A stretch of DNA of 64,000 nt from Sulfurospirillaceae bacterium. Its GTDB lineage: Bacteria; Campylobacterota; Campylobacteria; Campylobacterales; Sulfurospirillaceae. Position numbers and translations under genes: made by a program. Shown piece after piece: positions 25,781-44,423 of this stretch (positions within the stretch are counted from its first letter, which is position 1; each line of letters opens with the position of its first letter). The DNA lies in NCBI GenBank assembly GCA_033723415.1, contig JAWVXD010000003.1, positions 64,001 through 128,000 of the forward strand, written 5' to 3'. Below the pieces are notes generated by a model, which was given only the letters and a program-made list of their open reading frames with translations, did no database searches and was not told where the DNA came from.

Positions 25781-26581
25781 CTATTTTACGAAGGCAGCAC
25801 TCATATATCCCACAACATTATTTTTGTCTCCGCTCGTGTCAGCACTTGTTCTATAATCTAGGAGTATAGATCTTAATCCTTTCTGTTTTGCACAAATAAG
25901 CATTGCCTCAACTCCTGTTCTTCCACATGCTTCACATCCTTGATGAAGTTTAGAAATATCTAGTTGTTCTACTGCATCAAGACAAATATTATCTAGTATA
26001 TTCGCCTTTTTGATGTCGTAATAATGGCTTAGATCTGTACTTATGACGACTAAGTTACGAGGATCGTCTAGTATAAAATCTATAATCTCTGCTAATTCTG
26101 AGGGAATTTGTTTCCCATATACCAATTCTACAACTGATGTGTTTGGAAGATAGTGTTTGATAAAAGGCATTTGGACTTCAGTACTGTGTTCAAAATGAGC
26201 ATCGGGATGGAGATATAAGTTAAATTTTGTTTTTAATTCATTTATTAACGTTTCATCAATCGGGAGATCACCAAAAGGTGTTTCATAGCGCTCATAATCA
26301 GAAATACTGATTCCATTTATATATGCATGATGACTAGGCCCTATGACTACTACACATCTTGCTTCACTGTTCTTTAGTACTCTATAAGCTATATTAGCCG
26401 TAAATCCAGAGTATATATAGCCAGCATGCGGAACGATTATAGCTTTGGGCTTTATATCTAATAATTTGAGTTCATCTATATTCTCATCCAATATTTTGTT
26501 GTAATTTGTAAACATGTCATCGATCTCATGAGAATTGTTTGGATAGAACTGTCCGGCTACAACTGTTTTTCTGATAGTCAT
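25781..26581 (-). CDS. amrB: AmmeMemoRadiSam system protein B (MEMO1 family)
   Basis: VAGQFYP, PHAGYIYSG, GPSHH, EHSTEVQ, STDLSHY, ACG, VVGY. Confidence 0.92.
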   Translation of the reverse strand: MTIRKTVVAGQFYPNNSHEIDDMFTNYNKILDENIDELKLLDIKPKAIIVPHAGYIYSGFTANIAYRVLKNSEARCVVVIGPSHHAYINGISISDYERYETPFGDLPIDETLINELKTKFNLYLHPDAHFEHSTEVQMPFIKHYLPNTSVVELVYGKQIPSELAEIIDFILDDPRNLVVISTDLSHYYDIKKANILDNICLDAVEQLDISKLHQGCEACGRTGVEAMLICAKQKGLRSILLDYRTSADTSGDKNNVVGYMSAAFVK

Positions 26582-26662
26582 ATCAAACTCCTTATTACAT
26601 AAATAGTTTTCTAATCAGCTTTATTTTATCACTAAAAATGAATTCATGCAAAGTTGTAGAAG

Positions 26663-27655
26663 TTATTTCCAAATACCTTCTATAACTCTATTGCAGTTTG
26701 GGCATTTATCAGCATTCATATCATTTTGTATAATACTAAATCCTTCTCTTTCAATCAAAAGAGTACCACAATCTGGGCAATATGTATTTGCATGTGTTGG
26801 AACATTTCCCATATAAACATAATACAGTCCAGCTTCTTTTGCGATCTTACTAGCGCGCTCAAGTGTTCTTATAGTTGTATATTGATGATCTTGCATCTTA
26901 TAATCAGGGTGAAATGCGCTTAGGTGCCAAGGAACATGAGCTCCTAGATCATTGGCTATAAATGAAGCCATTTCTCTTAAATCGTTATCCGAGTCATTGT
27001 CTCCTTCTATCAAAAGAGTCGTGACTTCTACCCAAATTCCTAATGATACCATTTTCCTAAGTGTGCTTTTAACAGCTTCAAGTCCACCTTTTAGAACTTT
27101 TTTGTAGTAGCCCTCATCCCAGCTTTTAAGATCTACATTGGCAGCTTCACACCAAGCTCTCATATCTTCAACTACTTCTGGAGATTCAAACCCGTTTGTA
27201 ACAAATATATTTTTGATTCCTTGTTCTCTAGCGAGTGTTCCTATATCTTTTGCATAAGGATAAAAAATAGTAGGTTCATTGTATGTGTATGCAATAGAAC
27301 TTACATCATTTTCTATAGCCAATTCTACCATTCTTTTTGGACTTATATTGATGCTTTCATCTATTTTGTGCTCTTGAGAAATCTCCCAGTTTTGGCAAAA
27401 TGGACATTTAAAGTTGCATCCAACAGTACCAAAAGATAGAGCTTTGGTGCCGGCTAACATATGAAATATAGGTTTTTTTTCTATCGGGTCTATATGAAGG
27501 GCACTAGGATGCCCGTAAACCAGTGTTTTTAATACTCCATTTTCATTTTTATTGACACCGCAAATGCCGACACTGTCAAGCTTGATTTTACAATAATGCT
27601 GACATAGCATACAGATAATTCTATCTTTTCCTTCTATTTCTTGATAGTATTTCAT
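26663..27655 (-). CDS. amrS: AmmeMemoRadiSam system radical SAM enzyme
   Basis: DPIEKKP, GCNFKCPFCQNWEISQ, YTYNEP, and N- and C-terminal Cys pairs. Confidence 0.93.
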   Translation of the reverse strand: MKYYQEIEGKDRIICMLCQHYCKIKLDSVGICGVNKNENGVLKTLVYGHPSALHIDPIEKKPIFHMLAGTKALSFGTVGCNFKCPFCQNWEISQEHKIDESINISPKRMVELAIENDVSSIAYTYNEPTIFYPYAKDIGTLAREQGIKNIFVTNGFESPEVVEDMRAWCEAANVDLKSWDEGYYKKVLKGGLEAVKSTLRKMVSLGIWVEVTTLLIEGDNDSDNDLREMASFIANDLGAHVPWHLSAFHPDYKMQDHQYTTIRTLERASKIAKEAGLYYVYMGNVPTHANTYCPDCGTLLIEREGFSIIQNDMNADKCPNCNRVIEGIWK

Positions 27656-27751
27656 TTAGTTACCCTCAGTAATAAACTTTATGTATCTTGACCACATATC
27701 AAAATGTGATCTACTATTTGTGAGACAAGATTATGATAACTAATATATTTC

Positions 27752-28270
27752 TTAACGACGACGTTTAAAATTATCTTGATCTCCGTCTCTTTCTAGTCTT
27801 TGCATCCTATCTTCATATCTTTTTATAGCTGTTTGGATCTCAAATGCAAAGTCGTTTCCTATGATGTACTCATCTTTATCTTTAAAAAGACGAGTATAAT
27901 GATTTCTTGCAGCTTCGTTTTCCAGAGCACTTTCCAAAGTCTTGAATTTACCATGGGTTAAGCTTTCTAGGGTCATAGGAACATCTGTAAGTTCTCTATA
28001 TAATTCATGGTAAAAATCAAAAGGAATATAAGAAATCACATTTGACATTCTAAGCTGGCCGTTTACCTCTTTAAAGTGATACATAGTGATTTTTGCCAAT
28101 TTTCTATCATAGGTACTATAAGTTTTCGATGACATGAAATTTGTAATAGCAATATTGTCTTTTGGCAAAACAGCACTATTGATAGTCTTAGGATTTATCT
28201 GATAAGAGCATCCTGCTAAAACAAAGACACTTAGTAAAGTCAACAATGTATATTTGAAATATTTTTGCAT
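27752..28270 (-). CDS. Hypothetical lipoprotein
   Basis: Lipobox VLAGC; GGAGG ribosome site upstream on the minus strand. Confidence 0.7.
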   Translation of the reverse strand: MQKYFKYTLLTLLSVFVLAGCSYQINPKTINSAVLPKDNIAITNFMSSKTYSTYDRKLAKITMYHFKEVNGQLRMSNVISYIPFDFYHELYRELTDVPMTLESLTHGKFKTLESALENEAARNHYTRLFKDKDEYIIGNDFAFEIQTAIKRYEDRMQRLERDGDQDNFKRRR

Positions 28271-28941: not shown

Positions 28942-28979
28942 TTTTTTGCCTCTTTTTTGCCTCTTTTTTCTTTTATACT
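28942..28979 (+). promoter_or_regulatory. Tandem 11-bp direct repeat upstream of a -10 box; putative response-regulator site
   Basis: TTTTTTGCCTC at 28942-28952 and 28953-28963; TATACT at 28974-28979. Confidence 0.55.
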
Positions 28980-29008
28980 GTTGTAAAATTTATGAAAAAG
29001 GACATAAA

Positions 29009-31396
29009 ATGAAGATTACAAGAAGAGGGTTTTTGAAAGGAAGTGTTGCTGCTACAGCTGTGTTGAGTACAAATTCAGTAAGTGCAACTGAATTATTCTC
29101 ACCTGTGAAAAAAATTCCCAATGCTAGTCATTTTGGAGCATTTTATGCATTTGTTCAAGACGGAAAGATCTTAGATATCGTTCCGCAAGAACCAGATGAT
29201 AGACCTGGTATGATGAAGGCATTAGTCGATAGAAATTATTCTAATTCCAGAGTCAAATATCCTTATGTAAGAAAATCTTTTTTAGAAGGAAAGGCAAATC
29301 ACAAAGAATACAGAGGGAATGATGAATTTATAAGAGTGAGCTGGGATAAAGCTTTAGATCTTGTTACAAGAGAACTTAAAAAAACACATAGAGATAATAT
29401 ATATAACGGTACGACAGATGGATGGGCTCATCCTGGTTTAGTCAATTATTGTCCAACAATAGCAGGTAGGTTTTTTAATATTGTCAAAGGAGGATCTGTT
29501 AATTCAGACGGAGATTATAGTGTTGGTGCTGCACTTCGTACCAATCCTACGATAGTAGGTGATATAGAGGTATATTCACTTCAAACTACACATGAACAGA
29601 TTTTGGCAAATACCAAAGTGTATGTTATGTGGGGAGCTGATCTGTTTAAAGACAATAAAATTGATTTTGCCGTGGCAAATCGTAAAAATGATGAGTACTT
29701 CTTAAAATATAAAAAATCCAATATCAAATTTATATCTATCGATCCTATTAAGACGCAAACTGCAAAAATGTTTGATGCAGAGTGTATTGCTATTCGTCCA
29801 AATACTGATGTTGCACTCATGCTTGGTATGATGCATCATCTTTATAAAACAAAAAAATATGATAAAAAATTTATAGATAAGTATACTGATGGATTTGAGC
29901 AATTTGTTCCGTATTTAACTGGTAAGACAGATGGTATTGCAAAAACTCCGGAATGGGCTGAAAAAATAACGGAAATATCTGCTAGTAAGATTAAAGAGTT
30001 AGCGGATTTATTTGTCTCTACTAGAACATTTATTGCCGGAAACTGGGCATTACAGAGAGCTCATCATGGTGAACAGGCACAATGGGGGATTATTACTTTA
30101 GCTTCCATGATAGGACAAATCGGGCTTCCAGGAGGAGGATTCGGCTTTTCTATGCATTATGGCGGCGGCGGACAAGCAGCTGCAGGTAAAGCAGGACCCG
30201 GAGGATTCTCTCAAGGTAGAAACAGAGTCAGTGCTATCATACCAGCCTCAAGGATTAACGAAACACTTTTGCATCCAGGTAAAGAAATTGATTTTACAGG
30301 AGAAAAAATCAAACTTCCAAAAATAAAATTGATGTATGTTGCAGGAGCAAATAATGTCGGTCATCAACAAAATGTCAACGAGTTGATAGAAGGATTAAAA
30401 ACATTAGATACTTTGATTGTTCAAGATCCATGGTGGACACCTACCGCAAAAATGGCAGATATTGTTCTCCCTTCTACGACAACACTGGAGAGAGATGATA
30501 TAAGTTTGTTGAGCGGTAGTTATTCCGGAGATAAGATTTATGCCATGAGAAAAGTAGTTGATAATCCTTATGAAGCAAAGGATGATTATGAAATTTACTC
30601 GCTATTGGCAAAAAGATTCAGTCAGAAAAAATATGACAAATTTACCGGCGGCAAAACTGCAATGGAACACATAAAATCTTTTTATGCACAATCCGATGCT
30701 GCAAAAACTACTACATTTGAAGAATTTTGGGAAAAAGGTTATGTGAAATATGATATCCCAAAAGAAGCATACAAATATGTAAGACATAGCTCTTTTAGAA
30801 AAGATCCTCTAAGAAATCCATTAAAAACAGAGAGTGGAAAGATTCAAATTTTTTCTAAAAAATTTGCCAGTTTTGGGTATAAAGATTTTAAGGGCCATGT
30901 TACTTGGTTTGAACCGGCAGAATATCTTGGAAGTAAAGATGTTGAAACATATCCTCTTCATCTACTCTCTCCACATGCTACATATAGAAAACATTCACAG
31001 TTGGATAATGTCTGGATAGCAGAATTATATAAGATTAAAGGTAGAGAACCTATTAGAATAAATCCAAAAGACGCAAAGAAATATGGGGTAAGCAACGGTG
31101 ATCTAGTGGAAGTATATAATGCTCGTGGAAAACTATTAGCCGGTGCAGTAGTTACTGATGATATTAGAGAAGGAGTTGTCGCTATTGAAGAAGGAGCTTG
31201 GTATAGTCCAGAAAATTCTGCAATTAAAAAGAGTAGAGGAAACAGCGGTAATGTTAACGTATTGACATCTTCTAGGCCTACCTCGCAAATGTCACAATCT
31301 TGTACGGCCAATACAACACTGGTGGCTATTAGAAAAGCAGAAGGCGTCATAACACCAAATCAAGCTCATTTGATGCCTAAAGTAGCAAAAATTTAG
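29009..31396 (+). CDS. Tat-exported molybdopterin S-/N-oxide reductase (TorA/TorZ/BisC family)
   Basis: MKITRRGFLK Tat signal; GDYS Mo-Ser ligand; QRAHHGEQ, GQIGLPGGG, HSQL; no N-terminal Fe-S motif. Confidence 0.9.
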   Translation: MKITRRGFLKGSVAATAVLSTNSVSATELFSPVKKIPNASHFGAFYAFVQDGKILDIVPQEPDDRPGMMKALVDRNYSNSRVKYPYVRKSFLEGKANHKEYRGNDEFIRVSWDKALDLVTRELKKTHRDNIYNGTTDGWAHPGLVNYCPTIAGRFFNIVKGGSVNSDGDYSVGAALRTNPTIVGDIEVYSLQTTHEQILANTKVYVMWGADLFKDNKIDFAVANRKNDEYFLKYKKSNIKFISIDPIKTQTAKMFDAECIAIRPNTDVALMLGMMHHLYKTKKYDKKFIDKYTDGFEQFVPYLTGKTDGIAKTPEWAEKITEISASKIKELADLFVSTRTFIAGNWALQRAHHGEQAQWGIITLASMIGQIGLPGGGFGFSMHYGGGGQAAAGKAGPGGFSQGRNRVSAIIPASRINETLLHPGKEIDFTGEKIKLPKIKLMYVAGANNVGHQQNVNELIEGLKTLDTLIVQDPWWTPTAKMADIVLPSTTTLERDDISLLSGSYSGDKIYAMRKVVDNPYEAKDDYEIYSLLAKRFSQKKYDKFTGGKTAMEHIKSFYAQSDAAKTTTFEEFWEKGYVKYDIPKEAYKYVRHSSFRKDPLRNPLKTESGKIQIFSKKFASFGYKDFKGHVTWFEPAEYLGSKDVETYPLHLLSPHATYRKHSQLDNVWIAELYKIKGREPIRINPKDAKKYGVSNGDLVEVYNARGKLLAGAVVTDDIREGVVAIEEGAWYSPENSAIKKSRGNSGNVNVLTSSRPTSQMSQSCTANTTLVAIRKAEGVITPNQAHLMPKVAKI

Positions 31397-31418
31397 ATTA
31401 TTAAGAAGGAGATACAAT

Positions 31419-31976
31419 ATGAAATTTTTTTATATGATAATCATGATATGTTGCTTCTTTGGAGCAAATATGCAAGCAGAATCATATATATATACAAATG
31501 GGAAAGCATCGCTTTCCCTCCCAAGTAAAGGTGTAACCCTATATAATGGTGTTCCCGTACAAATCATATCCAAACAGGGAAATAACGTAAAAATTAAAAT
31601 TAAAGGATTTGTTGCAAAAAATGATACGACAAAACTGTATGCAACTACAAATAGAAGTCTTTTATTGGCAAGTGTAAAAAATAAAAAAAATTTGATTAAG
31701 GTTTCTAAAGGGGAAGGGATTCTAGTAATTAATGTTCCAAAGAATATTTTGACTGATGATATGGATGAAGCGTGGGAAACAAACTCTGATCTTTTTTATG
31801 ATAAGTGTACTAAATGTCACCATGCAAAGGTTATTAAAAACCATACTATGATGGAATGGGAAGCTATATTCGGCAGTATGAAACAAAAAGCAAAGACTTC
31901 AAATAAGCAAAATAAACTTATCATAAGATTTTTAAAAGCATTTGCAAAAGATGGAATACTCACAGAAAGTAATTAG
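31419..31976 (+). CDS. Monohaem cytochrome c, probable electron partner of the molybdoenzyme
   Basis: Signal peptide and a single C-terminal CTKCH motif followed by a Met candidate ligand. Confidence 0.8.
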   Translation: MKFFYMIIMICCFFGANMQAESYIYTNGKASLSLPSKGVTLYNGVPVQIISKQGNNVKIKIKGFVAKNDTTKLYATTNRSLLLASVKNKKNLIKVSKGEGILVINVPKNILTDDMDEAWETNSDLFYDKCTKCHHAKVIKNHTMMEWEAIFGSMKQKAKTSNKQNKLIIRFLKAFAKDGILTESN

Positions 31977-32001
31977 TGTTTATAAACACTAATTACTTTC
32001 T
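31964..32001. repeat. Perfect 38-bp palindrome over the cytochrome stop codon
   Basis: AGAAAGTAATTAGTGTTTA|TAAACACTAATTACTTTCT. Confidence 0.85.
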
Positions 32002-32064
32002 ATACTTTTCAATAAAGAAAAAAAATTGTAAAATTTCTTAGCTAATTGATGCAAGGAGGATACT

Positions 32065-32757
32065 TTGAATAATCTCTTACTCGAAAAACTTAAAACCTTG
32101 CGGATACTATATATTGAAGATGAAGAGGGCATAAGAAAAAAAGTCTCGGATGCTTTACGTTATTATAGCAAAGAGGTTATAGAAGCATCAGATGGTAAGA
32201 CAGGCTTGAAATTATATATGGAAAAAGATCCTGATATTATCTTTACAGATATTCTCATGCCTGAAATGAATGGAATTGAACTTATAAAAATAATACGGAA
32301 AAAAAATAATCAAATTCCAATAGTCATTACAACTGCTCATACCGATATGGAATACTTATTAAGTGCTATTGAACTACATTTAGAACAATACATAATAAAA
32401 CCTATCAATTTAAAAGATTTAAAGAATTCTTTGCAAAAATGTATTGAAGTTATATTGAAAAATAGATCATTTATTAAAAAATTACCTAGTGGATTTAGTT
32501 ATGATTTTGACCACAAGGTACTTATGTATGATCATAAAGAGATAAAGTTAAGTAAAAAAGAAATTTTATTTTTTGAACTTTTGATACAAAACAGTCATAG
32601 AATAGTGACATATCAAGAACTACAAAATTATATATGGAAAGATGATGTTATGAGTGAAGATGCACTGAAATCTCTTGTGCGAAATATCAGACAAAAATTT
32701 CCGAAAGGTTATATTAAAAATCTCTCCGGTATAGGATATAGAATTCTCGATGATTAA
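32065..32757 (+). CDS. OmpR-family response regulator
   Basis: IEDE, TDILMP, IIKP receiver motifs; winged-helix end GIGYR; TTG start after GGAGG. Confidence 0.9.
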   Translation: MNNLLLEKLKTLRILYIEDEEGIRKKVSDALRYYSKEVIEASDGKTGLKLYMEKDPDIIFTDILMPEMNGIELIKIIRKKNNQIPIVITTAHTDMEYLLSAIELHLEQYIIKPINLKDLKNSLQKCIEVILKNRSFIKKLPSGFSYDFDHKVLMYDHKEIKLSKKEILFFELLIQNSHRIVTYQELQNYIWKDDVMSEDALKSLVRNIRQKFPKGYIKNLSGIGYRILDD

Positions 32758-34456
32758 ATATCTAAGGATAAGATATAAATTTTTGCTTTTAGCGGTACTA
32801 GGGGTTGCCGCTATTATTTTGATGTCGCTATTAACACAAAATATCTTGGAAGAAGGACTCAAAAAAGTCAAAGAAGTTTTTGAAAACTCACAAAAAGTAC
32901 AGAATATCCAACAAGATTTTATTGCACCTCTTTTTAAGCTTAGAGAAGAAACTTTGTCTTTGATCGTTGTTCCTGATAGTGAATATAAAAGAGAGATTGA
33001 ACTGAATATTACGCCACTTATTGAACATTTGAATTACTCCTTTTCATTGTTAGATGGGCATATAAACAATATCTGGAAGAACTATAGAGATCTTATATTT
33101 GTAGCAGACGGCTATAAAAATTACAAAAAATTTGTATATATATCTGATGGTTATATGAAAGAAGATTACAGAAAAGGTGCATTTATGCATACAAAATATG
33201 TTGAAAGGAAGCAATTTTATATTCTTATTTCAAAGCTCAAAGAATTACAAACTATTCAAATGGAAAATTCATATGACACATTTATGAATGCAAAAAAAAG
33301 TTTTGCCAAAAAACAAATTATTATTATATCAGGAGTTCTAGTTGTCATTATTTTAACACTTTTATTTGGATTTTTGATTGCTAGAAATATAGTGTTTTCT
33401 CTGGAAATCGTTCAAAACGGGCTTAAAAAGTTTTTTGATTTACTGGGTAGAAATATTGATAAAGACAAACAAATCAAAATTCAGTTAGAAAATCGTGATG
33501 AATTTGGAGAAATGGCAAAGGTTATTAATCAAAATGTTGAAATTTTGAGAGAAAAATTAAAAAAAGACATATCTCTTATAGAAGATGCAACAAGCGTTTT
33601 TAGTGATTTGAAAAAAGGTCTATTAGAAAGAAGATTAAAAGAAAATGCCAGTTCGAGTGAGCTAAATATACTTAAAATCGTCATGAATGAAATGCTAGAT
33701 AATTTAGAATATAGAATAGACCATGAGATCAAAGAACGAACTAAGCAAGGACAACTTCTAATACAGCAAAGTAAGCTCGCTTCTATGGGAAGTATGATAG
33801 GTAATATCGCTCATCAATGGAGACAACCATTGAGCGAAATCAATGCAATTTTACTCAATATGCAAGTAAAAAAAGAATATAATGATCTAGATAATGATAC
33901 ATTTAAAGAAAGTATAGAGGAGTGTGATCTTATCTTATCACATATGTCAAATACTATCAACGATTTTCAGAATTTTTTTAAGCCTTCAAAAGAAAAAACT
34001 AAATTTAGTCTACAAGAAGCCTGTAGAAATGCAAGTTTTATTATCGAATCATCACTCAAGTACAATAATATTAAATTTAATATAGATATCAAAAACGATT
34101 ATCAAGTTTTTGGATATCCAAGAGAATTTTCTCAAGCAGTTTTAAATATTTTATCAAATGCAAAAGATGCTCTCTTGGAGAGAGGAATTAAAGATCCATA
34201 TATAACGTTAACATTAAAAAAGGGAAAACAATATGCTCTTGTTAAAATTGAAGATAATGCAGGAGGAATTAATGAAGATGTTATTGAAAGGATATTTGAA
34301 CCGTATTATACGACTAAACATGCCAGACAAGGTACAGGAATAGGACTTTATATGAGTAAGATAATTATAGAAGAAAATATGAACGGATATATATATGCTC
34401 AAAATAAGAATGAAGGAGCTTTATTTATAATAAAATTAGCTATCAATTCTCATTAG
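32750..34456 (+). CDS. Membrane sensor histidine kinase
   Basis: Two TM helices, HAMP region, IAHQWRQPL H-box, NILSNAKDA, DNAGG, GTGIGLY. Confidence 0.92.
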   Translation: MIKYLRIRYKFLLLAVLGVAAIILMSLLTQNILEEGLKKVKEVFENSQKVQNIQQDFIAPLFKLREETLSLIVVPDSEYKREIELNITPLIEHLNYSFSLLDGHINNIWKNYRDLIFVADGYKNYKKFVYISDGYMKEDYRKGAFMHTKYVERKQFYILISKLKELQTIQMENSYDTFMNAKKSFAKKQIIIISGVLVVIILTLLFGFLIARNIVFSLEIVQNGLKKFFDLLGRNIDKDKQIKIQLENRDEFGEMAKVINQNVEILREKLKKDISLIEDATSVFSDLKKGLLERRLKENASSSELNILKIVMNEMLDNLEYRIDHEIKERTKQGQLLIQQSKLASMGSMIGNIAHQWRQPLSEINAILLNMQVKKEYNDLDNDTFKESIEECDLILSHMSNTINDFQNFFKPSKEKTKFSLQEACRNASFIIESSLKYNNIKFNIDIKNDYQVFGYPREFSQAVLNILSNAKDALLERGIKDPYITLTLKKGKQYALVKIEDNAGGINEDVIERIFEPYYTTKHARQGTGIGLYMSKIIIEENMNGYIYAQNKNEGALFIIKLAINSH

Positions 34457-35955: not shown

Positions 35956-35987
35956 GTAAAAGTGTGTGAATAATCACACACTTTTAC
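35956..35987. terminator. Bidirectional terminator between metK and the M20 gene
   Basis: GTAAAAGTGTGTGA-ATAA-TCACACACTTTTAC, perfect 14-bp stem. Confidence 0.8.
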
Positions 35988-35991
35988 TTGA

Positions 35992-37149
35992 TTATTTAAT
36001 CTTTGTTTCAAAAACTCTAAGCAGTGAGACGGTTAAGATTATAAATCTCTCAATAATAGAATCTTTTTCGATAAATTCATTTCTACTGTGATCATCTGCT
36101 CCTATTGGACCAAAACCATCAAGTACCGGAGTATTTACATTTGCTATTGCATTTGCATCAGAAACACCTCCTCGAAATTCTCTCCCGAATTTTACATTAT
36201 ATCCTTCTATGATATTTTTAAGATCTTCGTAAAAGGAGAGATTGAGTGTCGATTCTTCCATGCTCCCTCTACCGCTGGTAATCTCTAACTTACTTGTGAC
36301 ACCGTCAACAAAGTTCATAGAATCAATCTCGGCAAGTTTTTGTTTTATATTTTTTTCATCATCACTATTTGTAAAGCGAATATCTATAGTTGCTTTTGCA
36401 TAGTCACTTATAGTGTTCGGTCCTACTCCTCCTGAAATCTTGCCGACATTAGCAGATATTTGTGTGTTTGTATCATTAATATTTTCGATTTCAATTATCT
36501 TGTGTGCAAGTTCTAAAATCGCACTTTTTTTCCCTGCAATTTTAAAGGCCGCATGTCCGGCTTCTCCAAAACATTCTAGAGAAGCTCCGATTTTGCCTTT
36601 TCTTCCTGTTACTATTTCACCGTTATGTCCAGCTCCCTCTAAAACAAAAGCTGCAGCTGATCTTTTTGCCTCTGTTTCAATATAAGGCTTTGAGAAAGGT
36701 GAACCGATCTCTTCGTCAGAATTAAAGAAAAAAGTTACCGGTATCTTTTTTAGTAGATTTTTATGTTCCAAAAACTTCAAAGTCATAATACCGATAAGAA
36801 GACCGCCCTTCATATCAAATACACCAGGACCCTTTATGATACCATCACTCTCTGTATAATCTAAAAAACCGGCATCTTGAGGAAATACAGTATCCATATG
36901 TCCACATAGCATTATCTGTGTGTTTTTAGTTTTGACAGCAGGAGTACTGGCTCTAAGTAGATTCCCGTACGTATCACTTTCGATAGTCTGATAATCAAAA
37001 GAAGTTCCAAGATAAGACTTTATCGTATCTAGTACTTTGTCTATACCTGCTTTATTGTAACTATAACTGTTGATCTCGATAATCTTTTTAAAGAGCATGA
37101 AGAATTCATCTTCATGCTCACTAAAGTATTGTTTTAGCTCATTTTCCAT
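35992..37149 (-). CDS. M20 family metallopeptidase (carboxypeptidase G2-like), cytoplasmic
   Basis: GHMDTVF, GPGVFDMKGG, DEEIGS, GRKG, GGVSDAN, DGFGP...HS.NE; no signal peptide. Confidence 0.9.
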   Translation of the reverse strand: MENELKQYFSEHEDEFFMLFKKIIEINSYSYNKAGIDKVLDTIKSYLGTSFDYQTIESDTYGNLLRASTPAVKTKNTQIMLCGHMDTVFPQDAGFLDYTESDGIIKGPGVFDMKGGLLIGIMTLKFLEHKNLLKKIPVTFFFNSDEEIGSPFSKPYIETEAKRSAAAFVLEGAGHNGEIVTGRKGKIGASLECFGEAGHAAFKIAGKKSAILELAHKIIEIENINDTNTQISANVGKISGGVGPNTISDYAKATIDIRFTNSDDEKNIKQKLAEIDSMNFVDGVTSKLEITSGRGSMEESTLNLSFYEDLKNIIEGYNVKFGREFRGGVSDANAIANVNTPVLDGFGPIGADDHSRNEFIEKDSIIERFIILTVSLLRVFETKIK

Positions 37150-37158
37150 GTATGAGTC

Positions 37159-38742
37159 TTATCTATATTTTTCAAATGCAAATGGTTGATTATACTCTTC
37201 CATCGTCATGTCTGGATAATCTACTTCTTCTCCGCTCCACGGTTTTTTCAGTTTTAGATTTCCATTTTCTGCATGTACTACGTTGTCTCTGTGAAGAGGG
37301 ATCTTACCGCCGGCAGTTGCTAGGTATCTAGGTATCGCATCACCAGAGATATTTCCATACATACTCTCAACTATATCTCTACCGACAGAAACAGGTACTC
37401 TCATGTGTGCAAACTCAGGATTTCTAAAGCTACAGTTGAACAAGTAGTAAGGTCTGATGTAAGACTCTTGCAATGCTTCACATAGTTTCCACATTTTGTT
37501 TCTTGTGTCGTTAATACCTCTAAGGAATACTGCTTGATTTAAGATAGCACTTGTCACTTTGCTAAGCTTTCTAAATGCTTCATGTGATTCAGGTGTCAAC
37601 TCTTGTGCTGAGTTGATCTGCGTTACAAATCTAAGTGGTTTGATATCGTTACTTTTTTCACAGATCTCCAAAAATTTATCATCGATTCTTTGTGGTGTCA
37701 TGATAGGGATTCTGCTTCCCAATCTTTTGATCTTGACATGAGGAATCTTGTCTAATTCATTTAATAAGTATTCGATTTTTTTATTTGATAAAGCCAGTGC
37801 ATCACCGCCTGTAATAAGAACGTCTCTGATATTTTCATCATTTCTTATGTAATTTAGTGCTTCTTCATAAGTATTATTTGAACTAACCCAGTCTTTATCC
37901 GATATATGTGCAATTCTCAAACAGTGTGTACAAAACATAGCACACATATTTGTAGCTTTTATAGTTAAGACTCTTGGATAAAATTGGTCTATCAATCTTG
38001 CAGGTGAGTGATCACTTGCAACAGGTTCAAGTTCTATACCATTGTTATCGACCATATCTCCGGTAGGTACACTTTGGAGTAAAATAGGGTCATTTATTTG
38101 GTTTGGCATTATTAAACTTGCGTAGTATGGAGAGATTCTCATCCTAAAAACTTTAGATACTCTTTGGATATCTTCTATAAGTTTTTGAGGAATATCTATG
38201 ATGCTCGCAAGTTGTTCAGGAGACGTTATAGCATATTTTATTTGTCCTGCATAAGAATCCCAGACTTCATCTGTCATTCCTAGTTTCTTCTGTATTTTTC
38301 TTCTGTTCTCTAACATTTGTTCATGTAAGTCAAAACCGCTTGGTGCGTCATCTTTGTTATTATCCAAGTAATCTTTGACTCTTGCGTTTGCTTTTTCAAC
38401 TATCGGCAGTGCTGAATATACTCTACCTCCAACTGACACGCGGTGTTCATCTGTATTTTTATGTTTCATTGCCATCAAATACAGTTCATCTTTGTCAATA
38501 CCGATGTCTTCAGGAGTCGCACCGAATTTTTCTCTTATAGTTTTTAGTTTATTGAATAGTTGAACCATCGGATTGGTTAATTTTTGTGAAGTTTTACTGA
38601 TTTCCAGCCACTCTTTTACTTCGTCAATATCTTTTTGACTTACTTCTTTTTTATCGTTTGAAGGTTCATATAAAAGCTCGAATAATTTTATATCAAATTT
38701 ATCAAGTTTCTCTAGATCCTCATTGCTAACAGCACATTCCAT
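37159..38742 (-). CDS. KamA/Eam family radical-SAM, PLP-dependent aminomutase-like enzyme (atypical)
   Basis: SPYY, CAMFCTHC.R, RDVLITGGD, R.GSR, PQRI, NQAV, RPYY, and GGKIP (PLP Lys); long N-terminal extension. Confidence 0.88.
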   Translation of the reverse strand: MECAVSNEDLEKLDKFDIKLFELLYEPSNDKKEVSQKDIDEVKEWLEISKTSQKLTNPMVQLFNKLKTIREKFGATPEDIGIDKDELYLMAMKHKNTDEHRVSVGGRVYSALPIVEKANARVKDYLDNNKDDAPSGFDLHEQMLENRRKIQKKLGMTDEVWDSYAGQIKYAITSPEQLASIIDIPQKLIEDIQRVSKVFRMRISPYYASLIMPNQINDPILLQSVPTGDMVDNNGIELEPVASDHSPARLIDQFYPRVLTIKATNMCAMFCTHCLRIAHISDKDWVSSNNTYEEALNYIRNDENIRDVLITGGDALALSNKKIEYLLNELDKIPHVKIKRLGSRIPIMTPQRIDDKFLEICEKSNDIKPLRFVTQINSAQELTPESHEAFRKLSKVTSAILNQAVFLRGINDTRNKMWKLCEALQESYIRPYYLFNCSFRNPEFAHMRVPVSVGRDIVESMYGNISGDAIPRYLATAGGKIPLHRDNVVHAENGNLKLKKPWSGEEVDYPDMTMEEYNQPFAFEKYR

Positions 38743-38792
38743 CTTATATCCTTTTAAATTTTGTTATTTCGTTATATCTTTAAATATAACAT

Positions 38793-40193
38793 TTAATTAG
38801 GGCAATCTATTGATCTATCAATCGTAGATGAGATCATTTCTTTGCCAATAGCTATACCGTGATTTATATCTTTAAAATTTTTGCCGAGTGCTACGACTCG
38901 TGCTAAAAATGAACCTTTGTTTACAATAAAATTTTGTCCTACGTGTTCTAGTATCATATGCTCCTTATCTATTTGGTTTTCCATTATTTTTTTAAATATT
39001 TCTAATTCATCACTTCTATGTACAAGGCCGCTATTTGTTTTTGATGTAGCTTCAAGTTTATAGTTATATGTTTCCCAAAAAATATCTTGATTGTTAAAAT
39101 CAGGTTCTATCATGTTTGGGGCTTTTTTATTTTGTGTTACGGCATAAAACTCAATCTCCGGCAAATTTGGAGCATTTTCTGGAAGTATGCAGTTTAATGT
39201 GCAGCAAAATTCCATAGTAGTACCTTGTTTCCTGGGATTTGTTTCTATAAAAAACACTTCATCTTTATCTGTTACGATAAAATCGCATCCAAAGATACCT
39301 CTATATCCAAGTTTTGCCATTTTTTTACCTATTTCTCTTGTTTGTCTTATAATTTCTTCTTTCACACTTAAAGAGACACGTGAAGGGAAAGCTGAACCCT
39401 TGAATTTTGTACCGTCTATTGTCTGATCTGCGATTCCTGCAACGTATATATCTTCTTCATTTATCGCTACGCAAAGAGTTGTCGGATCACATACGTGAGG
39501 TATGAATTTAGTTATTAAAAATTGGTCATCTTTATTTTTGCCAAATTTTTGAGTTATACTATCAATATCTTTAGCGATCAAGCTGTTTACTCCGGCTGCG
39601 CTTTTTTCAAGTGAGATAAAAATACCGTTGTTATCTTCAAAAGATTTGAGTAGCAAAGCCGATTTTTTTGTCAATTCTTCAAATCCGTTTGCAATTTCAT
39701 AAGGAGCCATAGGGACTATATTAGAAAAGATTTCATAAAGAGCAATTTTATTGCTTAATAACGATACTATCTTTTCATCCGGACCTATTACTCTGATTCC
39801 ACTTTTTTGATCCAATGTCATATGACGATTGGACTCGAACATATAAATAAAAAGTTCTTTTTGCTTTCTCAAAATTGTGTCTGTTAGATCATTTATGTAT
39901 TCGCTGTTGGAAACATCTCGCATAAAAAGATCATTGCTCTTTCTTTTATTCTCTCTATCTTTGATTTTATTGACGACTATTATGTTTTCGAAATTATAAT
40001 TGTCAAATACATCCGGAACTATCGTTATACACTCTATATTTGCTTTATCTATATGGTAAATCTTTGAAATTGCCTCTTTGGCAAAATTGCCTATTCCAAA
40101 TGCCTTTATCTCTGTTATAAACAAAAAATAATATTTATTTTCATCATATGTAAAATTTGTAAACCTAATATCGCTATGCATTGGTTTGCTCAT
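38793..40193 (-). CDS. ATP-grasp domain ligase
   Basis: NK..Y, SAAG loop, FLITKFI, GYRGIFGCDF, FIETNPRKQGTT. Confidence 0.85.
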   Translation of the reverse strand: MSKPMHSDIRFTNFTYDENKYYFLFITEIKAFGIGNFAKEAISKIYHIDKANIECITIVPDVFDNYNFENIIVVNKIKDRENKRKSNDLFMRDVSNSEYINDLTDTILRKQKELFIYMFESNRHMTLDQKSGIRVIGPDEKIVSLLSNKIALYEIFSNIVPMAPYEIANGFEELTKKSALLLKSFEDNNGIFISLEKSAAGVNSLIAKDIDSITQKFGKNKDDQFLITKFIPHVCDPTTLCVAINEEDIYVAGIADQTIDGTKFKGSAFPSRVSLSVKEEIIRQTREIGKKMAKLGYRGIFGCDFIVTDKDEVFFIETNPRKQGTTMEFCCTLNCILPENAPNLPEIEFYAVTQNKKAPNMIEPDFNNQDIFWETYNYKLEATSKTNSGLVHRSDELEIFKKIMENQIDKEHMILEHVGQNFIVNKGSFLARVVALGKNFKDINHGIAIGKEMISSTIDRSIDCPN

Positions 40194-40843
40194 TGTTTTT
40201 CTATCTCCCTTAACAATATGATTTTTGTTCCTGTCTCAAAATAATGCTCTCTAATCACTTCTTCTATCTGTTTCTTATTCCTGGATTTTACTGCATCAAC
40301 AATCTTTTGATGCCTATTTGTGATCTCATCTAAGGTATATAACTTTGTCCAATTTCTAAAAAAAAGTATTTGAGATAATTTGTTTATTCTTTCCAGTGTT
40401 TCAAGAAAGACAAAGTTTTTTGCATATTTGAGATAATGTTTATGAAATAGTTCACCTATTTTTACTACTTTTTTTGAGTCATTTACCGATTTGCTCATTA
40501 GAAAGACATAATGCTGTAAAAGGTCCATATCTTCTTGCGTAGCATAAAGAGCAAAGTTTGATGCAAGAAAACCTTCAACGACACCTTTTGCTTCATATGT
40601 GTCAAAAATATCTTTTGAAGTTATCTCTTTTACAAAAACGCCTTTTCTTTCCACATGTTCTAATATTCCGATTGATACAAGTTGTGCAAGAGCTTCTCTT
40701 ACAGGAGCACGACTTACTTTTAATTTATTGGCTAGATGTGCTTCTCTTATTTGCATTTTCTTTTTATATTCTTCATTTACAATGGCATCATATACATAGT
40801 CTACGATCTTATCTCGAAGTGGTTTTTTGTGTAAATCTGACAT
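40190..40843 (-). CDS. GntR (FadR/FCD) family regulator
   Basis: E..LA..L.VSRAPVREAL helix-turn-helix; FH and H..I in the FCD domain; stop overlaps the next ATG. Confidence 0.93.
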   Translation of the reverse strand: MSDLHKKPLRDKIVDYVYDAIVNEEYKKKMQIREAHLANKLKVSRAPVREALAQLVSIGILEHVERKGVFVKEITSKDIFDTYEAKGVVEGFLASNFALYATQEDMDLLQHYVFLMSKSVNDSKKVVKIGELFHKHYLKYAKNFVFLETLERINKLSQILFFRNWTKLYTLDEITNRHQKIVDAVKSRNKKQIEEVIREHYFETGTKIILLREIEKQ

Positions 40844-40860
40844 CGCTATTTTTCCTTATA

Positions 40861-40894
40861 ATTGTCGACAATATTTATTGAATTGTCGACAATT
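40861..40894. promoter_or_regulatory. Two palindromic operators ATTGTCGACAAT
   Basis: 40861-40872 and 40882-40893 (the latter extends to AATTGTCGACAATT); centres 21 bp apart; adjacent to minus-strand TATAAT at 40892-40897. Confidence 0.8.
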
Positions 40895-41054
40895 ATATAA
40901 GAATTAACTTTATTCTTAACTTAAACTTTATTTTTAAATTATTAGTATTGCTCAATAATTTTTTCTAAAATTTCATATTTTTTAAAAAATAAGCAATAAA
41001 TGTAACAAATTGTAACCAAATATCAAATAACATGTGGTTTTAACTAAAAGTTTA

Positions 41055-41083
41055 TTGACATAAAACAAAAATAATACTTTAAT
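41055..41083 (+). promoter_or_regulatory. Sigma70-like promoter of the TAXI operon
   Basis: TTGACA-N17-TTTAAT. Confidence 0.55.
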
Positions 41084-41125
41084 AAAAACTGAATCTTCGT
41101 ATGATTTAAATAAACCTTAAAGGAG

Positions 41126-42091
41126 TTGAAATTGAGGAAATCTTTACTTATAGCGGCCAGTGTTTTGGTTGCAATACCGGCAGTGGTAAGTGCTACGCAA
41201 TTTATTACGATTGGTACAGGCGGCGTTACAGGTGTTTATTATCCAACTGGGGGTGCAATTTGCCGAATGGTAGACAAATCAAAAGCAAAGACACATATTA
41301 GATGTGCAGTCCAATCTACTGCAGGTTCTGTCTTCAATGTGAATTCTGTTAAATCAGGTGATCTAGATTTTGGTATCGCTCAAAGTGATGTGGTATATCA
41401 AGCTTACCATGGACAGGGAATATTCAAAGGAAAAGCGCATAAAAACTTGAGAACTCTTATGACGATTTATCCTGAATTGCTCACTTTAGTTGTTAGAAAA
41501 GACTCAGGTATTAAAAATATAAAAGATATTGAAGGGAAAAGAATAAATATAGGAAATCCTGGAAGTGGGCAAAGAAATTCAACAGATCTACTTTTTAAAG
41601 AAACATCTCTTAGCAAAAGTGGATTAAAAGAAGCAAAAGAGTTAAAAGCTGCAGAAATGCCTGATGCTCTTAAAGATGGTCATATAGACGGTTATTTCTA
41701 TATGGTAGGTCATCCAACTTCAAATATTAAAGATGCGGCAAATTCAGTTGATATAGATTTAATTAATATTACGTCTAAGACTCTACCTGGATTGACAAAA
41801 TTCTTGAAAAAACATCCTTATTATGCAATGGGAACTATTCCAAAAGATATGTATAAAGGTGTTGATCATGATACAAGAACTTTCGGTGTTAAAGCAACAT
41901 TGGTAACAAATGCTAAAACAAGCGATAAAGTTGTTTTGGCGGTTATGAAAGCTGTACTTGATAATTTTGCAGCATTTAAAAAACTTCACCCAGCATATAA
42001 AAATATAACAAAGAAAAGTTTACTTGAAGGGTTGGGAGCTCCTTTGCATCCAGCAGCTAAAGCATATTTCAAAAAACTTGGTATTTTGTAA
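41126..42091 (+). CDS. TAXI family TRAP transporter solute-binding protein
   Basis: IGTGGVTGVYYP.G, STAGSV.N, AQSD, GNPGSG, PLHPAA..YF. Confidence 0.94.
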   Translation: MKLRKSLLIAASVLVAIPAVVSATQFITIGTGGVTGVYYPTGGAICRMVDKSKAKTHIRCAVQSTAGSVFNVNSVKSGDLDFGIAQSDVVYQAYHGQGIFKGKAHKNLRTLMTIYPELLTLVVRKDSGIKNIKDIEGKRINIGNPGSGQRNSTDLLFKETSLSKSGLKEAKELKAAEMPDALKDGHIDGYFYMVGHPTSNIKDAANSVDIDLINITSKTLPGLTKFLKKHPYYAMGTIPKDMYKGVDHDTRTFGVKATLVTNAKTSDKVVLAVMKAVLDNFAAFKKLHPAYKNITKKSLLEGLGAPLHPAAKAYFKKLGIL

Positions 42092-42111
42092 AAATACTTT
42101 TGATTCTTCAA

Positions 42112-42136
42112 ATTGCCCTGCCTTTAGCGGGGCAAT
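42112..42136 (+). other. Intercistronic hairpin after the TAXI binding-protein gene
   Basis: ATTGCCCTGC-CTTTA-GCGGGGCAAT with no U tract; possibly stabilises the upstream mRNA. Confidence 0.5.
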
Positions 42137-42211
42137 AAATTAAGGATATCTCTAAAATACAGGAAGGGAATATTTTATAGATGTCCTAAAGATAATCTAC
42201 AAGGATAAAAC

Positions 42212-44380
42212 TTGAAAGAGAAAATTGATAAGGATGAATATTTAGAAGATATTCAAGATAAAAACAAAAAAGAATTCGATGAACTATCTGAGCTTGATGA
42301 AAGTAGTATCCCAAGTGAAGATCATATGACTGCCGAAGAGAAATTGATAAGTGAGCTTGAGGGACAAAGGGTATTTCAAAAAGGTACATATAAATATAAA
42401 TTTATAACAATAGTTGCATTTACTTGGTCATTGTTTCAGCTATTTATAGTTATGAATCCAATCAATAGTGTATTTTTGCGCTCAATTCACTTGGCTTTTG
42501 CCGTTGTTTTGGCATTTACACTTTATCCGATCATAAAAAAACCACATTTAAGAAATACAATAACTTGGTATGATTTGTTATTTGCAGCTATCGGTGTTGC
42601 TGCTGTATTATATCAATCTTATGAATATAGTGCGTTGGCTATGCGTTCAGGCTCTTGGACACAAACGGATGTAGTCATGGGAATGTTGGCAGTAGTTGTG
42701 GTATTGGAGACTGCAAGAAGAGTTATGGGTTTACCGCTATCTGTTGTTGCCATAGTGTTTTTGGTGTATGATTATTTTGGGCCGTATATGCCTGATATAA
42801 TTGCACATAAAGCCGCGAATTTCTTTCAGCTGGCTGGACAAATGTCTTTAACTTCTGAAGGGATTTATGGTGTACCTCTAGGAGTCAGTGCTTCCTATGT
42901 CTTTTTATTTGTTCTTTTTGGTTCCCTTCTAGATCGTGCAGGAGGGGGCGAATATTTTATAAAGCTTGCATATACTTTATTGGGAAGATATGATGGAGGC
43001 CCTGCAAAAGCTTCTGTTGCAGCCTCAGGTCTTATGGGTATGATCTCAGGTTCTTCTATAGCAAATACTGTTACGGTTGGAACCTTCACTATCCCTCTTA
43101 TGAAAAGATTGGGATTTTCATCAAATAAAGCAGCAGCTGTTGAAGTATCAGCATCTGTTAACGGTCAACTCATGCCTCCTATTATGGGTGCTGCAGCATT
43201 TATTATGGCGGAATTTTTAGGACTTAGCTATAGAGATGTTGTCTTTGCAGCATTTCTTCCTGCTTTTGTTTGTTATTTTTCTCTATTTTATATCGTTCAT
43301 TTAGAAGCAAAAAAAGCCGGTATAAAAGGGGAAGATCCATCCAAACTGGGACGAGCATGGCCTATTTTTATAAAAGGGCTACACTATTTAGTTCCTATAT
43401 TTTTTCTTATGTATACGCTAATAGTACTTAGACAATCGGCTCAAAGTGCTGCATTTAACGCAATCATATTTATGATGCTGATCATGGTTTTACAAAAGCC
43501 ACTAAGAGCAATATTAAATAAAGAAAAAATAACACGTAGTATTTTGATGGAAGGTTTTACAGACATCGGTCAAGGTATGATAAACGGTGCAAAAGGCATG
43601 ATACCTATAGCTGCCGCAACAGCCGTTGCAGGTATTATTGTGGGTTCTGTTACATTGACAGGTATCGGGTTGATCTTGGTTGATGTTATAGATCAGTTAT
43701 CACATGGATATATTATTCTGGTCTTGCTATTGACTGCTATCACTTCGTTGATATTAGGAATGGGGCTTCCAACGACTGCAAACTATATCGTTATGGCTTC
43801 TTTGACGGCTCCTGTTATAATGCAATTATCAGCTCAAAACGGATATGTCATCCCTATGCTTGCCGCTCATATGTTTGTATTTTATTTTGGTATTTTAGCA
43901 GATGATACGCCACCTGTGGGATTAGCGGCATATGCCGCTGCAGGGATAGCAAAGGCAGATCCTGTCAAAACAGGTTTGCAGGGATTCTTTTATGACATAA
44001 GAACAGGACTTTTACCGTTTATGTTCTTTTTTAATAACAAACTTCTGATGATAGATCATGTCGACAAATTAGATCCTGATGATTCTACAAAGTGGGTATG
44101 GATATCAAATCCTTTGGAAATAGGAGCTATTTTTCTTGCCGCCCTTCTTGGAATGTTTGCTTTTACATCAGCAACGCAAGGATGGATGCTTACCAAGATT
44201 AGCACAGTAGAAAGATTACTTCTTATATCTGTCATACCTTTTGCAATGCAGCCTCAACTTATGGTAAATCATCTGGATTTACCAAATGAATATGTCAGTT
44301 ATATTGTCGCTCTATTGATTTTTGTAGCTGTGTATATGATCCAAAAAGTAAAAGTTAAAAAAGAAGTTATTGCAAGTTGA
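42212..44380 (+). CDS. TRAP transporter 4TM/12TM fused permease (TAXI-associated)
   Basis: GGPAKA, SGSSIAN, GQLMPPIMGAAAF, GMGLPTTANY, DTPPVGLAAYAAAGIA. Confidence 0.94.
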   Translation: MKEKIDKDEYLEDIQDKNKKEFDELSELDESSIPSEDHMTAEEKLISELEGQRVFQKGTYKYKFITIVAFTWSLFQLFIVMNPINSVFLRSIHLAFAVVLAFTLYPIIKKPHLRNTITWYDLLFAAIGVAAVLYQSYEYSALAMRSGSWTQTDVVMGMLAVVVVLETARRVMGLPLSVVAIVFLVYDYFGPYMPDIIAHKAANFFQLAGQMSLTSEGIYGVPLGVSASYVFLFVLFGSLLDRAGGGEYFIKLAYTLLGRYDGGPAKASVAASGLMGMISGSSIANTVTVGTFTIPLMKRLGFSSNKAAAVEVSASVNGQLMPPIMGAAAFIMAEFLGLSYRDVVFAAFLPAFVCYFSLFYIVHLEAKKAGIKGEDPSKLGRAWPIFIKGLHYLVPIFFLMYTLIVLRQSAQSAAFNAIIFMMLIMVLQKPLRAILNKEKITRSILMEGFTDIGQGMINGAKGMIPIAAATAVAGIIVGSVTLTGIGLILVDVIDQLSHGYIILVLLLTAITSLILGMGLPTTANYIVMASLTAPVIMQLSAQNGYVIPMLAAHMFVFYFGILADDTPPVGLAAYAAAGIAKADPVKTGLQGFFYDIRTGLLPFMFFFNNKLLMIDHVDKLDPDDSTKWVWISNPLEIGAIFLAALLGMFAFTSATQGWMLTKISTVERLLLISVIPFAMQPQLMVNHLDLPNEYVSYIVALLIFVAVYMIQKVKVKKEVIAS

Positions 44381-44388
44381 CTAAAACT

Positions 44389-44423
44389 AGAAATGAGTGA
44401 TTGAATCGCTCATTTCTTTTCTT
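44389..44423 (+). terminator. Rho-independent terminator of the TAXI operon
   Basis: AGAAATGAGTGAT-TGA-ATCGCTCATTTCT followed by TTTCTT. Confidence 0.75.

Follow-up and report, generated by a model that had tools for sequence, protein, structure and literature searches.

A conserved ATP-grasp ligase and aminomutase operon that most likely interconverts glutamate and beta-glutamate through a temporary amide

What does a bacterium gain from an amide ligase, a radical aminomutase and a peptidase that share one regulator and face a solute importer? This question is raised by six genes (8.4 kb; four minus-strand open reading frames (ORFs) and two divergent TAXI genes) between metK and lnt in a 64,000-nucleotide window, the whole stretch of DNA analysed here (contig JAWVXD010000003.1 of a Sulfurospirillaceae bacterium). 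In the direction of transcription, the minus strand encodes a GntR/FCD regulator (gntR, 40190..40843; PF00392 and PF07729), an ATP-grasp amide ligase resembling BesA and LdmS (38793..40193; 466 amino acids (aa), start possibly Met5; PF02655), a long KamA-family 2,3-aminomutase dependent on radical S-adenosylmethionine (SAM) and pyridoxal phosphate (PLP) (37159..38742; 527 aa) from a subfamily without a studied member, and an M20 metallo-hydrolase (35992..37149; 385 aa; Pfam M20) of the carboxypeptidase G2 type, which is an exchangeable release step. All of these proteins fall into known superfamilies, and no equivalog cut-off is reached by any of the three enzymes. The operon is a real, conserved and uncharacterised pathway, and sequence comparison indicates that it most likely interconverts glutamate and beta-glutamate by way of a temporary amide.

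The evidence comes first of all from the company the genes keep. We examined loci anchored on the ligase in genomes (best 80 of 209) and on the aminomutase in metagenomes (best 80 of 314), two sets that partly overlap in contigs and include kin that are not independent, with gene counts taken from tblastn. The aminomutase was adjacent to the ligase in 67/80 ligase-anchored loci and elsewhere in the locus in 2, while 8 had no room for it and 3 lacked it, and in these 3 it was found at another site in the same genome; the ligase was present in 72/80 mutase-anchored loci, with no room in 5 and absence from 3. Among 251 Desulfobacterota genomes (an even sample, centre included), the 5 with the ligase were the same 5 with the top aminomutase scores (3 long-type, 2 Eam-like), and 149 others with weaker KamA matches had no ligase. 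One Eam-like case is a single 922-aa ATP-grasp/Eam-like fusion ORF (L225:1891-4659, G234:C76), followed by an M20 gene and near glnA and glnE; a second, hereafter the sister operon, has ligase, mutase and M20 in the same order and a TAXI gene nearby. Another apparent fusion (926 aa, in L190) was rejected as an ORF-calling artefact. The sequence-only reading, an earlier description of this DNA, had treated the four genes as one candidate pathway, and our co-occurrence and synteny search upheld the ligase-aminomutase core; the M20 gene was elsewhere swapped for a cyclotransferase-like gene or missing, and the fixed core is the ligase and the aminomutase only. The module is rare and patchy, being found in Campylobacterota, Desulfobacterota, Deferribacterota and SAR324, with the closest related loci in Sulfurospirillum and other Campylobacterota. 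Within the window's phylum, 3/301 genomes matched the ligase (including the window's own and one fragment); only G010 of 13 same-genus genomes carried it, and the sister genus had it whole in 7/9 genomes and as a fragment in 1.

Which chemistry does the aminomutase favour? Among NCBIfam models it passes only TIGR00238 (243.6 against a cut-off of 199.2), and its highest-scoring equivalog model is that of Eam (TIGR04368, 337 bits against 650), above those of lysine 2,3-aminomutase (LAM; TIGR03820, 271 against 525.4), arginine 2,3-aminomutase (TIGR04468, 244 against 600) and EpmB (TIGR03821, 193 against 369). With KamA/AblA (2A5H), its fold match, it shares the cluster motif CxxxCxxC (C267/C271/C274) and R276, the counterpart of the substrate-carboxylate residue Arg134, all kept in 150/150 homologues, and K480, the counterpart of the PLP-binding Lys337 (147/150, the remaining 3 being gaps); these equivalences, in LAM numbering, were counted from an alignment of the aminomutase to 2A5H. 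It departs from the AblA-AblB osmolyte pathway in its score on the LAM model, in a PLP loop 3 residues shorter, in having no acetyltransferase in the block, and in the replacement of LAM D293 by S438 (147/150) and D330 by T476 (144/150), which agrees with the earlier description of the enzyme as atypical. K262, R440 and R472 were invariant in all ungapped sequences among the 150. The long subfamily also differs from Eam, whose signature at LAM 293/330 we take to be Lys/Asn, by its Ser/Thr pair (a signature unique to it), by about 100 additional N-terminal residues, by its tie to a ligase and by a score far below 650. The features held in common with Eam-like proteins are an Asn before the motif Cys and a Gln at LAM H230, and a quick tree, which had no clade test and included no characterised Eam sequence, joined the long subfamily, whose branch is very long (4.66), to the Eam-like proteins (SH-aLRT 97). 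These Eam-like sister proteins have Lys at LAM 293 (120/120) and Thr at 330 (in the 112 pattern-matched sequences), and all 12 tested scored 573-633 bits on TIGR04368, below its cut-off. Together, the comparisons suggest that the long aminomutase groups with glutamate-type rather than lysine-type enzymes; an archaeal glutamate 2,3-aminomutase (GAM) has reportedly been studied by Tunckanat et al. in 2022. The structure model had pLDDT <50 across active-site segments and was hence unused for pocket geometry, and a complex prediction of ligase with aminomutase scored 0.00, giving no verdict either way.

The ligase model is of higher quality (pLDDT 92) and has a complete three-domain ATP-grasp fold (Z about 25), with a metal motif (E317-x-N319-x-R321) invariant in 36 sequences. 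Its closest solved sequence relatives are BesA (8YI6; E 5e-9) and LdmS (7R8P; E 4e-4), with only about 100 residues aligned and scores of 29 and 35 bits against the respective equivalog cut-offs of 750 and 475, and neither of them pairs with an aminomutase. Fold searches placed it among PurT, PurK, biotin carboxylase and L-amino-acid ligases at tied Z, so that no substrate was indicated; about 122 clusters of relatives (50% identity, <1e-30) included none with a named function, the plasmid collection gave no match, and no RNA run was listed as a holder among the sequencing runs. In two loci, one sister-type and one long-type, genes for an enoyl-CoA hydratase and an ADP-forming acyl-CoA synthetase immediately precede that of the ligase (L224:11834-14862, L189:2547-5477), and a link of this pair to glutaconyl-CoA metabolism is possible.

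The third enzyme is the variable one. The M20 protein has its best PDB matches in carboxypeptidase G2 (E 1e-15), falls below every NCBIfam cut-off and keeps H84, D112, E146/E147, E171, H354 and R294 (two-metal ligands, catalytic Glu pair and lid Arg) invariant in 95 sequences, and linked M20 proteins cluster with those of sister operons (support 0.92). Considering only loci with at least 700 nt 3' of the aminomutase (54 ligase-anchored, 69 mutase-anchored), we found M20 in that slot in 31/54 and 58/69, a 165-aa cyclotransferase-like gene in 8/54 and 6/69, and the two together in 0 loci. The 165-aa protein, which is absent from the window, resembles gamma-glutamylcyclotransferase (Atlas 0.95; sub-cut-off Pfam matches in 9/12), has the YGSL loop and the LD-x-x-E-x-GY motif with the catalytic Glu, and is probably such an enzyme. 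In 38 genomes chosen mainly for M20-less loci, a search at E 1e-30 detected cluster-type M20 somewhere in 10, distant M20s only in 6 and none in 22; gamma-glutamyltransferase (GGT) was found in 13/13 Desulfofustis-type genomes tested (12 without M20) against 3/17 others, and pxpA in 5/5 genomes tested. Cyclotransferases require a gamma-glutamyl amide with a free alpha-amine, and, going by the usual specificities, a gamma-glutamyl amide of glutamate would be the only class of compound that a carboxypeptidase G2-like enzyme, a cyclotransferase and GGT could all cleave.

Lone cyclotransferase-like genes also stand beside prs in three ligase-less genomes of the same genus (L289, L293, L295). They were considered as counter-evidence and rejected as such, given that prs marks the site of the full Sulfurospirillum cluster, and they are probably cluster remnants. 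L296 (G021:C78:1-600) holds a decayed copy, in which pieces of the ligase, the mutase and the cyclotransferase-like gene are crowded into about 600 nt.

On the plus strand, the importer consists of a TAXI-TRAP solute-binding protein with a glutamate/glutamine-type pocket (41126..42091, over the TIGR02122 cut-off) and a fused permease (42212..44380; DctM and DUF3394 in Pfam; TIGR02123 650 against 321). Compared with VcGluP, a TAXI binding protein specific for glutamate (8S4J; PMC11574862), the binding protein keeps all direct ligand contacts (V44, Y45, S75, Q93, E125, G156, Y200, M201) and differs at water-mediated positions (S40G, H123Y, D157Q); the contacts retained do not discriminate glutamate from glutamine or beta-glutamate. 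The Y-S-Q-E-G glutamate contacts were retained in 51/56 locus-linked TAXI binding proteins. TAXI genes occurred in 30/80 ligase-anchored and 25/80 mutase-anchored loci in several arrangements, and a TAXI gene or permease in 18/38 and 9/17 loci of at least 15 kb. Five TAXI genes of the genome exceed the cut-off, giving a calculated chance of about 4% for proximity within 9 kb, and a paralogous system (G000:C7:9619-12831, L233) is 61% (binding protein) and 81% (permease) identical to that of the window. Because the window's binding protein is closer to this paralogue than to most locus-linked ones, the importer seems to have been recruited separately. In or beside the module, L056, L057, L084, L092 and L189 carry a further TAXI-like binding protein, which is divergent in sequence (20-27% identity) and has a different pocket.

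How might the block be controlled? The gntR gene overlaps the ligase gene by 4 nt (ATGA), and gaps of 50 nt and 9 nt follow; two TTGTCGACAA palindromes whose starts are 21 nt apart (40862..40871 and 40883..40892) are probable GntR operators. Terminator-like hairpins close both ends: a bidirectional one between metK and the M20 gene (35956..35987, both strands; 14-bp stem with T-rich tails on each side) and one 3' of the permease (44389..44417, plus strand; 13-bp stem and a T run). The layout given in the sequence-only reading (four tightly spaced minus-strand genes, two perfect operators, a divergent TAXI transporter and a terminator at each end) is thus correct in every part. The regulator, with H134, H178, H200 and R177 conserved across 31 orthologues, is probably an autoregulated repressor. 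Perfect TTGTCGACAA copies number 3 in the 2.43-Mb genome, the third within an ORF; with 1 mismatch allowed, the 5 matches in the window were reached by 6/100 shuffles and are not above chance, and the operator reading is instead supported because the motif lies within 160 nt upstream of gntR in 22/31 gntR-bearing loci from three phyla.

The same control extends to a second gene pair. The operator recurs in L308, where a GntR orthologue that has all 39 of the conserved positions stands ahead of genes for a 357-aa aminomutase and a glutamine synthetase (GS)-like enzyme, and this pair lies inside or next to the ligase-mutase operon in 7 loci. A single effector thus appears to control two ligase-plus-mutase cassettes. 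The 357-aa subfamily has a YCEPAP motif and Glu at LAM 293, occurs in 14/401 Desulfobacterota genomes and adjoins glnH or glnQ in 2/14 loci. In alignment, the GS-like enzyme keeps the ammonia-site residues and has moved the Arg of the glutamate site that binds the alpha-carboxylate, and the 357-aa protein is a candidate glutamine/beta-glutamine aminomutase. Loci with the 357-aa gene are L029, L035, L057, L084, L092, L138, L167 and L303-L316, often with the GS-like partner, and in L309, L311 and L314 two non-canonical KamA-family genes of different kinds stand in tandem.

These observations appear to share one theme, a 2,3-amino shift that goes together with chemistry on glutamyl amides. The earlier proposal of ligation, rearrangement and release fits the comparative data, with the amendment that the amino acid is not an open choice, as glutamyl amides are indicated. 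The direction that we favour, tentatively and at less than even confidence, is an ATP-driven salvage of beta-glutamate to L-glutamate, in which every substrate, the amine partner X, the order of steps and the direction are deduced from the genes. The TAXI system would import beta-glutamate or a close glutamyl compound, and GntR would be released from both operators; the ligase would amidate one carboxyl of beta-glutamate with X, most likely L-glutamate; the aminomutase would shift the amino group of the capped substrate from C3 to C2 to give a gamma-glutamyl amide; and M20 would free glutamate, a task that a cyclotransferase (yielding 5-oxoproline) or GGT would take over elsewhere. Capping would make the conversion one-way and prevent the mutase from draining the pool of free glutamate. 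Co-occurrence of ligase and mutase, the fusion, the Eam-like sister operon, the exchange of release genes, the glutamate contacts and the shared regulator all support this reading. Salvage is favoured over synthesis because the cyclotransferase can follow the shift only if its product is a gamma-glutamyl amide, because the arrangement of repressor and importer suits substrate induction, and because ATP-driven capping would overcome the equilibrium between glutamate and beta-glutamate, which favours the beta isomer. A supply of beta-glutamate in the sea is real: PMC8269262 gives 730 mM in Nitrosopumilus maritimus and a rise with depth. A bolder idea, which we consider possible and hold with more reserve, is that the genes form the first pathway devoted to the consumption of beta-glutamate, a major osmolyte of archaea that is released to seawater and sediment. 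It would be an ATP ratchet whose mutase acts only on the capped substrate (beta-Glu-Glu to gamma-Glu-Glu), and the GS-like/aminomutase pair under the same regulator would offer a further solution (beta-Glu to beta-Gln to Gln).

Several observations weigh against salvage. BesA, the nearest relative of the ligase and by name a propargylglycine-glutamate ligase, takes alpha-glutamate. The Lys at LAM 293 in the sister mutase would fit free glutamate, and since it is kept there, the change from Lys to Ser is no proof of a capped substrate; its role could just as well be taken over by the invariant R440 or K262. The Y45 contact is found in 78% of TAXI proteins generally. Neither M20 nor the cyclotransferase-like gene was present in the slot of 15/54 and 5/69 loci, and the metagenome-assembled genomes G089, G090, G094 and G095, whose completeness is not given, had no M20, GGT or cyclotransferase-like match. 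The 165-aa protein compared with cyclotransferases gave an hhalign probability of 2.5% and no PDB match, and the GGT association is confounded by kinship. Finally, ectC is present in this genome and in only 1/23 other module-bearing genomes, so that a route of solute synthesis may still be needed by most carriers; the argument that own ectoine genes exclude such synthesis was dropped for this reason.

The main alternative, which we rate only a little below salvage, is synthesis of an undescribed compatible solute: the mutase would make beta-glutamate or act on gamma-Glu-X, the ligase product (gamma-Glu-beta-Glu or beta-Glu-X) would accumulate, TAXI would supply glutamate and the optional hydrolase would do no more than recycle the solute. 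The loci without a hydrolase, the 22/23 genomes without ectC and the lysine retained in the sister mutase suit it, vent, marine and halophilic taxa are among the carrier records (not quantified), and a cyclotransferase could perhaps also cleave gamma-Glu-beta-Glu. Beta-amino acids have an established role as solutes that turn over little, and the beta-glutamate of methanogens is described as nearly static (PMC1224877). Against this reading, an importer that diverges from the enzyme genes, with the operators of an FCD repressor in between, is the usual arrangement in substrate-induced catabolism; no recurrent osmotic-stress gene appeared among the neighbour families scanned, the window's own genome already has ectC, and the parallel GS-like enzyme, which has lost the Arg for the glutamate alpha-carboxylate, suits a beta-glutamate substrate.

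The gamma-glutamyl group might instead be a mere protecting tag, as in BtrJ/BtrG or Puu logic, placed on another amino compound with a second amine (e.g., a diamino acid) that the mutase rearranges before the hydrolase removes the tag. Pairing of an ATP-grasp ligase with a cyclotransferase is that of butirosin BtrJ/BtrG, and an acylated side-chain amine would suit an enzyme in which the two LAM aspartates are gone, with K262, R440 and R472 as possible ligands of the tag carboxylate. We consider this improbable, as the mutase clusters with Eam-like and not lysine-type enzymes, the importer and M20 are glutamate-type, and no recurrent neighbour gene would make or use a diamino acid. Slightly less credible still is a carrier cycle run in reverse (Glu to gamma-Glu-X to beta-Glu-X, with M20 freeing beta-glutamate as an osmolyte), which agrees with the gene order and a BesA-like gamma-glutamyl ligase: canonical Eam forms beta-glutamate without ATP, a cyclotransferase in the slot (14 loci) means that the gamma-glutamyl intermediate of such a scheme would be destroyed, and loci without a hydrolase could not release the product. 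Another mutase substrate (glutamine, 2-aminoadipate or a sulfonated amino acid), or genes only loosely related in function, is equally doubtful, since strict co-occurrence and fusion exclude unrelated functions and the accessory genes all indicate glutamyl chemistry, even though the mutase has a very long branch, an N-terminal extension and a Ser/Thr signature of its own, and its subfamily includes no characterised member.

How does salvage compare with known systems? PuuA/PuuD, BtrJ/BtrG and LysX/LysK likewise form an amide with ATP, modify the capped compound and release it, whereas here the modifying step would be a radical 2,3-amino migration, for which the glutamyl unit itself is the probable site. 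The LysX/LysK analogy drawn in the sequence-only reading keeps its ligate-and-release logic and is otherwise loose: the ligase is PF02655 and not RimK, no recurrent carrier-protein family of the LysW type occurred among the neighbours examined (where ORFs <90-100 aa were not called), and gamma-glutamyl capping is closer. A ligase gene also shares its operon with an M20 gene in hmrA/ldmS, where ldmS is co-transcribed with an M20 carboxypeptidase whose functional link is unresolved according to PMC9486568; HmrA is of the M20D type. Neither AblB nor EpmA is encoded in the block, as had been pointed out, and a genome-wide search, made for EpmA and not for AblB, returned no EpmA over cut-off; the aminomutase is the only KamA-family gene of the genome. 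Our search, confined to the open-access literature, turned up neither a description of this gene set nor any report of how beta-glutamate is catabolised; related work includes 10.1101/2025.11.21.689712, PMC10702137, PMC10639138 and PMC5488096.

Regarding its setting, the block is an insertion at the metK-lnt site, because lnt lies within 1.5 kb of metK in 6/11 same-genus metK loci, including that of the one-contig genome G013. The adjoining metK was considered as a SAM-supply gene and rejected, as it reflects native gene order; GC content (33.9% vs 34.5%) gives no sign of recent transfer. Upstream of metK, positions 28946-34456 hold genes for a Tat-exported molybdoenzyme like DMSO/TMAO reductase, a two-component pair and a 185-aa protein that has a CxxCH motif but matches no Pfam family. 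Positions 25781-28270 carry, on the minus strand, a Memo-like gene, a gene for a radical-SAM protein and an ORF of 172 aa that likewise has no match in Pfam; together they resemble an AmmeMemoRadiSam cluster.

Overall, this gene set may be an undescribed route for consuming beta-glutamate, with its direction and amine partner deduced from sequence comparison. Should salvage be correct, the genes would identify beta-glutamate consumers, mark a flux of carbon and nitrogen that has gone unmeasured in anoxic marine settings, and extend the radical-SAM aminomutases to an enzyme working on a dipeptide; should solute synthesis be correct, their product would be a new compatible solute. Some non-pathogenic carriers are in culture (Desulfofustis glycolicus, Desulfopila aestuarii and Deferribacter abyssi), which makes both readings directly testable.

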